NCBI RefSeq assembly: GCF_053078305.1 | Contig: NZ_CP166879.1 | Direction: 5' to 3' (one strand) | DNA: 64,000 nucleotides | In this document: piece after piece, positions 20,562 to 28,100 of the stretch | How positions within the stretch are numbered: position 1 is the first letter of the stretch | Layout: every line of letters starts with the position of its first letter | Notes under the pieces: generated by a model | Told to the model about the DNA's origin: nothing | Databases searched by the model: none | What the model saw: the letters and a program-made list of their open reading frames with translations, nothing else | Position numbers and translations under genes: made by a program

Positions 20562-22210
20562 TTGGGACGATACTGAATCAGCACCAGACGCTCCTGACGA
20601 TCGATGGCATCTGCGGGCGGAATGGCGAGACTGTTGATATCTTCATCGCGGTCAACCGAAAGCACGAGTGTAATAATCCCCTCCTGACGATGTTGATTAA
20701 GCCAGTTTGCGAACTCATCACCGCTGACAAATCTCCCTTTCGCATCCGGATAATTAAGGCCGTATTTCAACTCACCTGTCTGGCGATACATGATGATGTC
20801 ATCGCGTTGCAGGCTCCATGCCAGACCTGCGGCAACACCGACGCTATCAGTAAGAATATAGCGGCTTGGCTGAAGTGATTCTTGTGTCATCTCGACAAAA
20901 AATTGCGGATGTTTTCCTTCCATGACTCTGTCAGGAATTGAAAATCCTACCAGCAACGCCAGCCCCAGCGGGCAAAGCGCGGCAAAAGACCAGGTCTTTT
21001 CGACGTTTGTTAAGGTGTACCAGCCGAAAAATGCCCATAGCGAAAAAATCGACCAGGCACAAAAGACTTTATAGCTCTCGAAGGTTTGCCACACCGGCGT
21101 GTTCATTGGTCCCCAGGGGGAGACCACAAATGTGGCAATAATGCCAGTGACGCCAAAAGCGATGTTAATCCAGCCATTAATCCGCAGCGCCAGAGGATTA
21201 TTTTTTGCTGCCAGCAAAGCGTAATGCGCCATCAGCATTGCCAAAGGTGCAAAGCAAGAAAGAATATAGGTGGGCAATTTACCCTTAGCAACGGAGAAAA
21301 ACAGCAGCGGCATTATCGTCCAGCTCAACAAATAGACGGTTGCGGAATGCTTGCGGTTTTTCCAGCCTGTGTATAGTGCACCGGGGAGTAATCCCAGCCA
21401 CGGCAGGCTACCGGCAATGATGACCGGCACGTAGTACCAGAACGGAGCTCTATGTTGGGCATCATCCAGTGCAAAGCGTTGAATATGCTCAACCCAGAAA
21501 AAATAGTGCCAGAAGTCAGGCTCCCGCTGCGCTATCGCCAGTCCCCAGGGGAGAACCGTCAGTACGCAACTGATAACCGCCAGCCAGCCGTAAATAAAGA
21601 GATCTTTCCAGCGTTTTTGTGTCGCTACCCATGGCAGCACGCTTAATACCGGCACGGCAAGGGCGAGAAAACCTTTGGTCATCACCCCCATGCCGCAGGT
21701 GATTCCCAGCAGTAAAAATCCTGCGCTTTTGCCTTTCCACGTCTGTGCCTGCATTGCCAGCCAGAAGCTGCACATTCCCGCCACCAGCCAGAAGGCAATA
21801 AACGGATCGAGCACGGCATAAGTGCCGATGGCATAGACAATAAACAATGAGAGATAAATTACTGTGGCGAGTAGAGCCAGACGTTTATCGCGCCATAAGC
21901 GCAGAGTAAACCAGGTCACCAGCGCGGCAGTTAACAGGGTCGCAAAGATAACGCCTGCCCGCACACCAAAGTTATTCGCGCCAAATAGCCATTGCCCAAT
22001 GCTGTTAATCCAGTATCCGGCAATGGGTTTTTCGAAATAACGTAGCCCTAACAGATGGGGCACAATCCAGTCGCCGGATGCCAGCATTTCTCGACTGATT
22101 TCCGCATAACACGTTTCATCGGGTTGCCATAGCAGACGCGTGCTGATCGGTAACAGGTAATAGCAGGCAATAAACGCGAAGAGGCCGATAAGGTAACGTA
22201 CCGATTTCAT
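20558..22210 (-). CDS. arnT: undecaprenyl phosphate-alpha-L-Ara4N transferase (lipid A modification)
   Basis: 550-aa polytopic membrane glycosyltransferase [21 protein letters not shown]... Confidence 0.95.
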
Positions 22211-23100
22211 CAGCGACTACCCGCAATTTGTTGGCAACCCAGCCAGCCTTCACGTCCGGCAATATTTCCGCGAACAACTTGTCCGAGCGGCAACGTCTCT
22301 GATAACAGTTCGCTTAAAGGGCAAAATGTCACGCCTTCCTGAGCTGCGCGTTTGAGGAGATCCACAAAATTATGCTGATAAGCGCAGCCTTCAACTTCTG
22401 CATGAATGGTATAAACCGGCGTGCCTTTATCTCGCAGGATGCGGTTGAGTAACCAACCGTTAAAATCTTCTGCTTTCACATCCCGACCAATCACTTCATC
22501 CCAGGTGGGTAAGGTCACCGGAATTTGCGCAGTGCCAGGGTTTCCTGATTCGAGCAGTGGACGGAACGGCATGGCCCCACGACAATCGCTGTTGTAGCGC
22601 AAATGGAACGCTTCTTTTGCTTCGATCACCTGCTGGTCGGCACGCCAGCCCGCAGCGGCAGAACAGGTTACCGGTTGACCGATAATCTCTTCCAGAGTGC
22701 GAAGGCCGCGTGCAATATCGTCGATCATTGTTTGCCGATCCCAGTTACCGCTACGGGCTTGCCAGGCATGGTGATCCCAGGCGTGCAGGCCGACTTCGTG
22801 ATGTTTAGCCGCTTCACGAATGATATCGGCATTGGCATGACCAATCTCTTTACCTGGCCAGGCCGTACCTGCCAGTAAAATATCCCAGCCATAAAGCGAT
22901 GCCGCGTTTGAGCGCAGCATCTTCCACAAAAACTGTGGCTTCACCAGTCGCCAGAGATGACGGCCCATATTGTCCGGGCCGACGCTGAAAAAAATGCTGG
23001 CCTGAATATTATGCTTACTCAAGATTTCCAGCAGACGCGGCACGCCTTCACGGGTGCCACGAAAGGTATCGACATCAATGCGTAAGCCTACTTTGGTCAT
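22210..23100 (-). CDS. arnD: 4-deoxy-4-formamido-L-arabinose-phosphoundecaprenol deformylase
   Basis: 296 aa, polysaccharide deacetylase-like; operon context. Confidence 0.93.
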
Positions 23101-25078
23101 GATGGTTTATCCGTAAGATCAACGGTGCGCAGGAAGAAATCCAGCGTTTCGTCGATGGTTTCCTGCATATCAATTTTCGGCTCCCAGTCCAGGCAGCGGT
23201 GGGCATTGCGGATGCTCGGTTTACGATGCTCTACGTCCTGATATCCTTTGCCGTAGTAGCTGCTACTTTCGACAACGCGAAAGCCCGCAAACGGTGGGAA
23301 ATGATGGCGCAGCGGATGTTTTTCGAAGCTCGCCAGCAGCATCTCGCCCAGTTCCTCAATGCTCGCTTCGTTCTCAGGATTGCCAATGTTGATAATTTCG
23401 CCGTCGCAGCGATTTCCCGCATTTTCGATAATGCGGTATAACGCCTCGATACCATCGCGAATATCAGTAAAGCAGCGTTTTTGTTTTCCGCCATCAATTA
23501 GCTTAATCGGTGAACCTTCTACCAGATTGAGAATGAGTTGCGTAATCGCGCGGGAGCTGCCAATTCGCGCTGCATTAAGGTTATCCAGTCGTGGTCCCAT
23601 CCAGTTAAACGGGCGGAAGAGGGTGAACTGTAAACCCTCTTTTTCGCCATAGGCCCAGATCACCCGATCAAGTAATTGTTTTGACACCGAATAAATCCAG
23701 CGTGGTTTATTCACCGGGCCGACGATTAAATTAGAATGGTCCTCATCGAAGTATTTATCGCTACACATTCCATAAACTTCTGAAGTTGATGGGAAGATGA
23801 TTCGCTTACGGTACTTCACGCAGTAGCGGATAATGCGCAGATTCTCTTCAAAATCGAGTTCAAATACGCGCAGCGGATTGCGGGTATATTCAATCGGCGT
23901 GGCTATCGCCACCAGCGGCAAGACGACATCACATTTTTTGACGTGATACTCAATCCATTCGGAATGAATACTGATATCGCCTTCGACAAAGTGAAAATGC
24001 GGATGATTCAGAAAACGGCTTATCGCATCGCTGCCAATATCCAGACCGTAAACTTCATAATGATCTTCGCGCAGCAGGCGTTCTGTCAGATGGTTGCCAA
24101 TAAAGCCATTCACCCCGAGGATGAGTACCCGGGTACGGCGTCGGGCGGCACAGGCAGGCTGGCTATTCAAGCGTGAACCTTGCACCAGGCCCAGCGTCTG
24201 CGCTAATTGCGAGCCCTGCATAGTAATGCCGTCGCCCGCCTGTCCGGTGACGATTTCCAGCGCGCCATCGCCACAGGCAATCAGCAGTGGCGCAACAGAA
24301 ATCACGCTCCCCGGCTGTGCTTTGCTGGCATGAGGATGAACACGCGACGACCAGACGGTGAATTTCTGATTGCCAACATAGCTGAAGGCACCCGGCCACG
24401 GATCGGCAACGGCACGTACCATGTTGTGCAGTACGGATGCCGGCTTATGCCATTCGATGAAACTGTCATCCGGCGTTCTGCGACCAAAACAGGTGGCTTC
24501 GTTTTCGCGCTGGGCGATTTCCAGAATATTACCGTGTTTAATGGCGGGTAATGTCTGTTCCAGTAGCTGGCGCGCGGCATGGCACAATTTATGATGCAGC
24601 GTAATAGCGATATCGTCTGGCGCAATGGCAACGCGCAGTTGCGCCACAATGGCCCCGGCATCGGCACGTTTTACCATTCGGTGCAATGTAACGCCAGTTT
24701 CTGTTTCACCGTTCACCAGCACCCAGTTCAGCGGCGCGCGACCACGATATTTTGGTAACAGCGAACCGTGCAGATTAAATGCACCTGCGGGAGCGAGCTG
24801 CAAAATCTCGTCGCAAATAAGATGGCGATAATAAAAAGAGAAAATCACCTCTGGTGAGAGTTGGGCAATGCGTTCCACCCACAGCGGATGATTAACGTTA
24901 TCCGGCGCATAAACCGGAATGCCTCTTTCCGCCGCCAGACGAGCCACCGAACCATAAAAGGCTTTTTCACCGGGATTATCGGTATGGGTAAAAATGGCGC
25001 TAATTTCGTAACCGGCAGCCAGCAGGGCTTCAATACCGAGGCATCCCATATCGTGGTAGGCAAAAACGACGGTTTTCA

Positions 25079-25079
<1 letters not shown>
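23097..25079 (-). CDS. arnA: bifunctional UDP-glucuronic acid decarboxylase / UDP-Ara4N formyltransferase
   Basis: 660 aa; N-terminal formyltransferase and C-terminal SDR decarboxylase domains ([11 protein letters not shown]ossmann motif). Confidence 0.95.
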
Positions 25080-26050
<971 letters not shown>

Positions 26051-27208
26051 TTATTGTCCTGCGAGTTGCTGAAGGGCTGTGATGACACGGTCGGCATCGG
26101 CGGTAGTCATATCCGGGAACAGCGGCAACGAACAGATGCGTTCGCTATTCCATTCGGTATTCGGTAACGACAGCGTGGGAAAACGCTCGCGATAATATTT
26201 TTGTGTGTGAGCGGCGCGGAAATGTAACCCGGTACCAATACCTCTTTCTTTTAACGCTTCCATCAACGCATTTCGACTGATACCACAACGTTGTTCATCG
26301 ACACGAATAATAAACAGATGCCAGGCGTGAACGTGCGACCAGGCGGGAAGGCTTAATGGCTGAAAGGGGAGAGCTGCCAGTGCTTGCTGATATTGCTGGG
26401 CAATTTCGCGCCGACGGGTGTTGAGGTGCTCTAATTTAGCTAACTGTGTCAGGGCAATCGCGGCGTTAATATCGGTCAGATTGTACTTATAGCCCGGTGT
26501 TAAGACTTCAGCCTGCGGTGCACGGCCCCAGGTTTGTCTGTCATAGGCATCGACACCCAGACCGTGAAATTTCAGCATCCGTAGCTGGCGGGCAAGATTT
26601 TCATTATCAGTAACAATCAGGCCACCTTCCGCACAGGTAATATTTTTGATGGCGTGAAACGAAAAAATAGCGGTACCTTTTGCGCCAATATGTCGCCCTT
26701 TGTAATACGTACCGACGGCATGGGCTGCATCTTCGATAACTGCGATGCCGTAACGTTCGCCAATGGCGCGAATGGCGTTAATATCTGCTGGCGCACCGGC
26801 ATAATGCACCGGAATGATGGCTTTAGTGCGTGGCGTAATGGCTGATTCGATCGCTTCAGGCGTGACCATCAGCGTATCGCGATCGACATCCACCATTACC
26901 GGCGTTGCACCCTGCAAGGAAATCATATTGAGGGTTGAAACCCAGGTCAGGGAAGGCGTAATCACTTCATCGCCCTTGCCAATTTCCAACGCCATTAGCG
27001 TGATATGCATTCCGGCGGTGGCTGAACTGACCGCGATGGCATGCTGATTTCCTGTCAACTGGCAAAAGGCTTGTTCAAGCGCCTGATTCTTCGGACCGGT
27101 TGTGATCCAACCGGATTCGAGAACCTCTTTAACTGCAGCGAGTTCCTCCACGCCCATTGCTGGTCGCGAAAAAGGCAAAAATTCTGACATTGCTTTTCCT
27201 TCCGCCAT
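26051..27208 (-). CDS. arnB: UDP-4-amino-4-deoxy-L-arabinose--oxoglutarate aminotransferase (PLP)
   Basis: DegT/AHBA-synthase-type aminotransferase; likely start [10 protein letters not shown] (track ORF has 5 extra codons). Confidence 0.93.
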
Positions 27209-27288
27209 TGAATACCTGTCCACTTATATTTTCTATAAAGAGTGTTGTGTATATTTTGCCATTTGGAGCGAAATTTTAAGGATAGAAT

Positions 27289-27305
27289 ATTAACTTAACC
27301 TTAAG
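27289..27305 (-). promoter_or_regulatory. PmrA (BasR) box upstream of arn operon
   Basis: On the arn strand reads CTTAAG-gttaa-GTTAAT, matching the YTTAAK-N5-YTTAAK direct-repeat consensus, about 80-100 bp upstream of arnB start. Confidence 0.6.
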
Positions 27306-27497
27306 AAACTAATATTAGACGTAAATATTGAAATTTTTATATTTTTTCTTATTTAGGCTTTGCATTTGGCAAAATTTTGAGGCATTTTGCCAGCATCGCA
27401 GGATTTTTAATATTACACCAACTGCTAATTATCGCCAGAAATGTCGCTCAATTTCACGGTAATTGTCTGGTTGCGCTTGTCTATAGGTGGAGTTTAC

Positions 27498-28100
27498 GTG
27501 TTAGCTTTTTGCCGCTCTTCGTTGAAGTCAAAAAAATATTTCATCATTTTACTGGCGCTCGCTGCAATTGCCGGACTGGGTACTCATGCCGCCTGGAGTA
27601 GCAATGGTTTGCCACGTATCGACAATAAAACACTGGCCAGACTGGCACAGCAGCACCCGGTTGTCGTTTTGTTTCGCCATGCTGAACGTTGCGATCGTTC
27701 AACCAATCAATGCTTGTCAGATAAAACAGGTATTACGGTCAAAGGTACCCAGGATGCCCGAGAACTGGGCAACGCTTTTAGTGCTGATATCCCTGATTTC
27801 GATCTCTATTCCAGTAATACCGTCCGGACCATTCAGTCGGCGACCTGGTTTTCAGCGGGTAAAAAATTGACGGTAGATAAACGACTTCTTCAGTGCGGTA
27901 ATGAGATTTATAGTGCAATTAAGGACTTACAAAGCAAAGCGCCTGATAAAAATATCGTTATTTTCACCCATAATCATTGCCTGACATATATTGCTAAAGA
28001 TAAGCGTGATGCGACATTTAAACCTGATTATCTGGATGGTTTAGTCATGCATGTGGAAAAAGGCAAAGTTTATCTGGATGGGGAATTCGTTAACCACTAA
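27498..28100 (+). CDS. ais: PmrA-regulated LPS core heptose(II)-phosphate phosphatase (Ais/PmrG), GTG start
   Basis: 200 aa from GTG ([31 protein letters not shown] signal peptide); histidine phosphatase RHAER motif (VLFRHAERC). Confidence 0.88.

Follow-up and report, generated by a model that had tools for sequence, protein, structure and literature searches.

A PmrA/BasR box in the arnB-ais spacer of Escherichia coli as the likely activator site of the arnBCADTEF operon

The promoter of the arn operon is the switch for modification of lipid A with Ara4N, which is the principal chromosomal route by which enterobacteria become resistant to polymyxin and colistin. In the DNA examined here, a stretch of 64,000 nucleotides referred to throughout as the window, arnB and ais are read in opposite directions from a common intergenic spacer. 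The question raised by this arrangement is whether the spacer contains a site through which PmrA (BasR) would activate the arn genes, how such a site would be placed relative to the arnB promoter, and whether it might also serve ais.

The region at positions 27100..27600 was matched in 5418 of 5426 complete E. coli genomes, with identities of 95 to 99.6%. The arn open reading frames were mapped onto the RefSeq annotation, using the near-identical locus of ATCC 8739. The window ORFs agree with the annotation of this locus in ATCC 8739 and K-12, where the gene order from left to right is menE, pmrD (plus strand), arnF-E-T-D-A-C-B (minus strand), ais (plus strand), nudI and yfaZ (Table 1). Searches with NCBIfam profiles gave 734.6 bits for ArnB (cut-off 631), 392 bits for Ais (cut-off 142) and 174 bits for PmrD (cut-off 96). 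The genes from arnC through arnF (19840..26047) are the remaining operon genes driven by the arnB promoter. A preliminary description of the window had put pmrD immediately downstream of arnF; the two genes are indeed adjacent, but pmrD lies on the opposite strand and is convergent, its 3' end overlapping that of arnF by 7 bp (19840..19846). It is a separate gene outside the arn transcript, and read-through of the operon past arnF would run antisense to it from this overlap. A scan for a PhoP box upstream of pmrD gave nothing convincing. The same description credited the window with a complete module for resistance to polymyxin and cationic peptides, which proved too broad: arnBCADTEF, pmrD and ais are present, but ugd, basR, basS, eptA and pmrR are absent, as the K-12 ugd and eptA-basRS-pmrR regions, used as blastn queries, found no match there.

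Table 1. Coordinates of genes and promoter features at the arn-ais locus (positions in the window)
Feature	Position	Strand	Basis or remarks
pmrD	19580..19846	+	ORF, annotation, NCBIfam; convergent with arnF
arnF	19840..20226	-	ORF and ATCC 8739 annotation
arnE	20226..20561	-	ORF and ATCC 8739 annotation
arnT	20558..22210	-	ORF and ATCC 8739 annotation
arnD	22210..23100	-	ORF and ATCC 8739 annotation
arnA	23097..25079	-	ORF and ATCC 8739 annotation
arnC	25079..26047	-	ORF and ATCC 8739 annotation
arnB	26051..27208	-	ORF and NCBIfam; ATG 27208 (K-12 annotation) or ATG 27190 (PGAP annotation)
arnB -10 hexamer TAAAAT (predicted)	27273..27278	-	Exactly 10 bp after the box
PmrA/BasR box	27289..27305	-	Half-site 1, 27305..27300; half-site 2, 27294..27289
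AT-rich stretch upstream of the box	27306..27330	-	TAAATAT-like block at 27322..27328 conserved (12-species alignment)
ais core promoter (predicted)	27360..27388	+	TTGCAT 27360..27365, 17-bp spacer, CATTTT 27383..27388
ais	27498..28100	+	GTG start; divergent from arnB; ORF, annotation, NCBIfam

The divergence of ais from a spacer shared with arnB was as originally described. The spacer measures 289 bp (27209..27497) with the K-12 start of arnB and 307 bp with the PGAP start, and has a GC content of 31.8%. The former start gives a product of 385 aa and the latter one of 379 aa. The sequence GAAGGA, 7 to 12 nt 5' of the ATG at 27190, resembles a ribosome-binding site, and the alignment with the NCBIfam ArnB profile begins at residue 7; the shorter form is probably the correct one. 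No Rfam family was matched within 27000..27700, even at an E-value of 1.

On the strand of the arn genes, the spacer contains the PmrA box CTTAAGGTTAAGTTAAT at 27305..27289 (plus strand, ATTAACTTAACCTTAAG), which reads CTTAAG-GTTAA-GTTAAT and confirms the CTTAAG-N5-GTTAAT element of the preliminary description. Whether this is a consensus box, as was then stated, depends on the definition used. The verified boxes of Salmonella consist of CTTAAG, 5 bp and NTTAAT (PMC3973317), and the box in the window is an exact fit to this pattern. With respect to the alternative pattern YTTAAK-N5-YTTAAK, it deviates at one base, having G rather than C or T at the first position of half-site 2, a difference which the authors of PMC10729948 termed 'a slight modification'.

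An AT-rich spacer might be expected to produce such a motif by chance, with no regulatory role, and the more permissive pattern (YTTAAK-N5-YTTAAK with one mismatch) is indeed not enriched, as it was found six times in the window against 3.7 expected, a result which is not significant alone. The strict pattern CTTAAG-N5-NTTAAT, on the other hand, occurs once in the 64 kb (both strands) against 0.04 expected. Given the low GC content of the spacer, the spacer was also shuffled separately; the strict pattern was present in only 0.105% of 20,000 dinucleotide shuffles, and a relaxed box followed after 10 bp by TANNNT in 0.19%. A weight matrix, a tool already recommended in the preliminary description, was built from 40 distinct sites, comprising the boxes upstream of arnB in other genera and the K-12 ugd, pmrR and eptA boxes, with the window and E. 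albertii left out. The box in the window scored 27.5 bits (training median 26.0, minimum 13.2), while the second-best of approximately 128,000 window positions reached 10.9 bits, which is under the weakest training site. Moreover, the 43-nt core is present in 5412 of the 5426 complete E. coli genomes and identical in 4196 of them, and K-12 is identical to the window over the box and the -10 hexamer.

The layout of the promoter was compared across the Enterobacterales. A scan for ArnB among species-representative genomes provided 80 loci from Escherichia, Salmonella, Citrobacter, Klebsiella, Enterobacter, Kosakonia, Erwinia, Pantoea and other genera, or 81 with the window. A relaxed box was found no more than 300 bp upstream of arnB in 77 of these 81 loci. 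Among the sites recovered was the Klebsiella box CTTAATATTATCCTAAG, already known from a published footprint, at about -170 relative to the start codon (PMC3973317, PMC2565834), which validates the approach. The boxes preceding arnB in Salmonella and Klebsiella correspond in position to that of the window. Among 74 distinct arnB upstream contexts, 69 have the sequence TANNNT at exactly 10 bp after the box, and none of the other gaps between 0 and 24 bp rose above 9 counts. The results from this comparison supply a precise definition of the promoter, namely the box, exactly 10 bp, and a -10 hexamer. The arnB coding start, in contrast, is found anywhere from 98 to 234 nt away from the box, depending on the species; the earlier statement that the box lies at the expected distance upstream of arnB is therefore better put in terms of the fixed gap to the -10 hexamer than in terms of the start codon. 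With its position and orientation so widely conserved, a constant gap to the -10 hexamer, an identical core in thousands of E. coli genomes and published functional evidence for orthologous sites, a chance origin of the box is effectively refuted by the comparative data.

The constant spacing of 10 bp implies that the box stands in for the -35 element, in line with PmrA promoters described in the literature. In K-12, the same 10-bp gap separates the boxes at ugd, at eptA and beside the basS end, on its pmrR side, from TATTCT, GAGCAT and CATACT, respectively, although these -10-like hexamers are weaker. Counting from the predicted -10 hexamer, transcription of arnB would start at approximately 27264..27268, and the box would occupy approximately -39 to -23. 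This is within about 2 bp of the position implied for the Klebsiella box, approximately -37 to -21 (PMC10570014). In both sequence and orientation, the box and its spacing are those of a PmrA/BasR-activated promoter, the -35 position being deduced from the -10 hexamer. The AT-rich stretch upstream of the box may be an UP-like element of the arnB promoter; the scaffold used for cryo-EM of PmrA also contained an upstream AT-rich sequence (PMC10570014).

Several further features of these promoter regions were recorded. An ATG is located 11 nt past the predicted -10 hexamer, only a few nt from the predicted arnB transcription start, and opens a frame (27233-27262, minus strand) encoding MAKYTQHSL*. 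Very short frames from the ATG after the hexamer were also seen in E. albertii (MAKYT*), Citrobacter (MK*) and Salmonella (MR*). Such a frame could be a signature of the start site or a minimal upstream ORF. Two PmrA-like boxes are present upstream of arnB in Phytobacter (L017, L019) and Buttiauxella (L053, L059); those of Phytobacter are 32 bp apart, and TANNNT follows after 10 bp at the proximal box only. In Citrobacter tructae (L086, 1-1350), a box-N10-TACTCT promoter beside ais directly drives an ArnT-like gene of the PMT family, and the usual arnB is missing from the position behind this promoter.

On the basis of the observed motif, its significance, its conservation, the fixed spacing to the -10 hexamer and the lack of a second box in the spacer, the best explanation, which we hold with high confidence, is that this element is the BasR activator box of arnBCADTEF, most likely shared with ais. 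A phosphorylated dimer of BasR (PmrA) would bind the 17-bp element at the arnBCADTEF promoter, its two DNA-binding domains being accommodated head to tail by two direct-repeat half-sites 11 bp apart. Bound at the -35 location (about -39 to -23), 10 bp from TAAAAT, BasR would recruit and position the sigma-70 RNA polymerase, thereby substituting for a -35 element. The operon for Ara4N modification of lipid A would thus be expected to rise with Fe3+, Al3+ or mild acid via BasS and, under some conditions, low Mg2+ would also raise arn transcription via PhoPQ and PmrD.

PmrA binding to orthologous boxes, the mechanism of activation and the dependence of arnB and ais on BasR are taken from the literature. 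Binding of PmrA has been shown for the Klebsiella box and is cited for that of Salmonella (PMC2565834, PMC3973317). A cryo-EM structure of the activation complex of PmrA with RNA polymerase is available, in which the pmra-box replaces the -35 element (PMC10570014). The activity of arnB reporters depends on basS/basR or pmrA (PMC8151780; bioRxiv 10.1101/2020.05.05.080051). An arnB-lacZ fusion was up 31- to 72-fold in a constitutive basS A20D mutant, with similar activation by basR G53V (PMC8151780), and the rise of P_arnB-gfp in mild acid required phoP, pmrD and pmrA (bioRxiv 10.1101/2020.05.05.080051). The PmrA/BasR activation of the arn operon suggested in the preliminary description is thus supported by the statistics, by the comparative layout and by the literature. 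The box itself is already known and is textbook material; a 2023 study of enteropathogenic E. coli (EPEC) draws the identical motif in the arn promoter of its strain (PMC10729948).

Results from that same study suggest a rather different role for the site, in which PmrA would repress at the box by occluding RNA polymerase and QseB, phosphorylated by PmrB, would be the true activator of arn. Loss of both pmrA and qseC in EPEC made expression of arnB and eptA constitutively high, phosphorylated QseB shifted a 60-mer EMSA oligonucleotide which matches 27270..27329 of the window but for one base, and the sigma-70 site predicted by BPROM falls inside the box (PMC10729948). However, the 60-mer spans the entire PmrA box, so that a QseB site is not separated from the box by this experiment. 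Moreover, the reporter and mutant data described above require pmrA/basR for arnB expression, the arrangement of box, 10 bp and -10 hexamer is an activator layout common to ugd, eptA, pmrR and the great majority of arnB contexts, and the structure of the activation complex was solved on the orthologous promoter. Repression by PmrA, with QseB as the activator, is therefore considered very improbable, while cross-talk of QseB at or near the DNA of the box is possible.

The activator box leaves the regulation of ais to be accounted for. The mRNA of ais is down 2.64-fold in a basSR deletion, and binding of BasR to the ais promoter is cited in the same report from an earlier study by its authors (PMC12419081). 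Transcriptome data also show ais expression changing in parallel with that of arn, eptA, ugd and basR (PMC13405929, PMC4145685). The earlier remark that ais is PmrA-regulated in E. coli is in agreement with these three reports, in which ais follows BasSR. Since ais is divergent from arnB in only four of the 81 loci, more ais loci were fetched by means of Ais homologues, giving 15 ais-bearing species in total. In all 15, a box in the arn orientation precedes ais. A second box in the spacer that would serve ais, for which the preliminary description had advised a search, was not found: apart from the arnB box read in reverse (9.9 bits), the rest of the spacer scored no higher than 3.4 bits with the weight matrix. 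Twelve ais-bearing species were searched on both strands, and 11 of them lack a forward box facing ais; in the twelfth (L088), a near-symmetric arn-facing box also matches in reverse. In the three further ais loci, the scan covered only the arn-facing box.

The ais side of the spacer does contain a conserved element. The hexamer CATTTT is present upstream of ais in 15 of 15 species, and in 14 of them TTGCnn is located exactly 17 bp 5' of it. This element, TTGCnn-17-CATTTT, is probably a weak sigma-70 core promoter of ais, to judge from its conservation and form. Transcription of ais would then start near 27395, and the centre of the arnB box would be near -98. From the box to TTGCnn there are 54 bp in seven species, 44 bp in six, 46 bp in one and 41 bp in another. 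One helical turn thus separates the two main classes, a spacing which suggests dependence on helical phase.

Alternatively, ais might have its own degenerate PmrA site, TTTGAG-GCATT-TTGCCA at 27376..27392, for a BasR monomer or a weakly bound dimer. The hexamer at 27376..27381 reads TTTAAG in most relatives and, as part of a conserved TTTAAG-GCATTTT, is shared by E. albertii, E. marmotae, Salmonella and several Citrobacter, and low-affinity half-boxes have been reported at the pbgP promoter of Klebsiella (PMC2565834). The weight matrix, however, gave no match at 27376..27392, where scores remained within the low range of the rest of the spacer. The hexamer also varies between species (TTTGAG, TTTAGG, TTTCAG, TTTGGC, GTTAAG), and the form found in E. 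coli (TTTGAG in the window, K-12 and ATCC 8739) breaks the TAA core that is contacted by PmrA (PMC10570014). What is invariant instead is TTGCnn and CATTTT, 17 bp apart, which resemble a core promoter enclosing the hexamer in its spacer. For these reasons, the second conserved block was dropped as a TTTAAG half-site for ais following comparison of 12 to 15 species. Because the hexamer varies and its TAA core is broken in E. coli, a separate degenerate half-site is the weaker alternative to a shared box, and we regard it as improbable.

Other candidates in the spacer were also set aside. An inverted repeat, TGGCAAAAT-N8-ATTTTGCCA at 27367..27392, is not conserved in Salmonella and was taken as incidental. 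A scan for consensus promoters returned TAGACG-16-TATATT and a minus-strand match inside the ais leader, neither of which was retained as a main candidate. The same scan pointed to TTGCCA-16-AATATT (27387..27414), which is not conserved in the relatives examined and was likewise not taken as a main candidate; as an E. coli-specific candidate, it competes with the conserved core promoter.

Four ais loci have no adjacent arn genes, namely those of Intestinirhabdus alba (L085), of a genome labelled C. freundii (L088), of C. rodentium (L089) and of L093. All four retain the box and, 10 bp after it, a good TAnnnT hexamer (TAGAAT, TATATT, TAATAT and TAATAT, respectively) facing away from ais, while the sequence of the gap itself has diverged. 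The boxes are located at 1334-1350 in L085, at 1332-1348 in L088 and at 1381-1397 in L089, and that of L093 is 164 nt upstream of ais. These orphan promoters face the 3' end of pmrD or menE, with no gene behind them. Retention of the box where arn is missing is consistent with selection for ais too.

Returning to the shared box, the single site would act from about -98 on the weak, conserved ais core promoter TTGCAT-17-CATTTT. In favour of such a role are the lack of a second site in the spacer, the 44- or 54-bp gap found in 13 of 15 species and the box kept at the four loci without arn. Against it, a site centred so far upstream is distant for an activator of the OmpR/PhoB type, and the E. 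coli-specific promoter candidate mentioned above would compete. The chance that the arnB box also serves the divergent ais as its only BasR site appears roughly even, or slightly better. More speculatively, the box together with the arn-facing promoter might activate ais in a manner dependent on helical phase, by coupling through divergent transcription or supercoiling, or by bending of the DNA by BasR some 90 to 100 bp upstream. Alternatively, the orphan promoter might make an undescribed BasR-dependent short RNA or an RNA antisense to pmrD or menE. We consider these proposals rather unlikely. A phase-dependent model of the shared box would nevertheless explain both the two gap classes and the retention of box-N10-TAnnnT at the loci devoid of arn. 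The single box in the spacer therefore raises a small, testable question, that of co-regulation of ais from about 100 bp away, and the observations on the ais side constitute a modest lead.

Among known systems, the pbgP (pmrH/arnB) promoter of Salmonella enterica is close in design, with the same gene pair in the same orientation, ais being represented by the divergent pmrG. The first base of the Salmonella box is 115 nt upstream of arnB codon 7, exactly as in the window. The 10-bp gap to TANNNT is also the same, and TTGCnn-17-CATTTT is present on the ais side. The box itself differs (CTTAATGTTAATTTAAT in Salmonella, CTTAAGGTTAAGTTAAT in the window), as does the gap from the box to the ais element, which is 44 bp in Salmonella compared to 54 bp in the window. 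The original footprint of the Salmonella pbgP box is reportedly the work of Wosten and Groisman in 1999 (J Biol Chem 274:27185).

The pbgP promoter of Klebsiella pneumoniae likewise has a 17-bp direct-repeat box which replaces the -35 element and is followed by 10 bp and TACATT (PMC3973317, PMC10570014). Its pmra-box has been footprinted, and crystal, NMR and cryo-EM structures have been obtained. The Klebsiella box, CTTAATATTATCCTAAG, differs in sequence from CTTAAGGTTAAGTTAAT and is located some 170 nt away from the start codon. Klebsiella also has a PhoP box and a second promoter downstream of the PmrA box (PMC2565834), neither of which was seen in the window, and has no ais gene upstream of arnB. 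As an aside, box and TACATT are 10 bp apart in the natural promoter of Klebsiella (L043), whereas the scaffold of PMC10570014 combines natural sequence to -13 with a consensus -10 element, which leaves a spacing of about 8 bp if the box ends at -21. Such a reduced spacing might explain part of the 3-bp upstream displacement reported for the DNA-binding domains (PMC10570014).

Within E. coli, the K-12 boxes at eptA, at ugd and on the pmrR side conform to CTTAAG/T-N5-CTTAAT and, like that of arnB, are followed by 10 bp and a -10-like hexamer; their half-site 2 begins with C, that of the arnB box with G, and they are located at other chromosomal loci. A more distant parallel is provided by the pho-box promoters of PhoB, such as pstS, at which a regulator of the OmpR/PhoB family binds a direct repeat of 11-bp periodicity replacing the -35 element and contacts region 4 of sigma-70 (PMC10570014). 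The half-site sequence of the pho box is different, and it is positioned about 4 bp further upstream than the pmra-box (PMC10570014).
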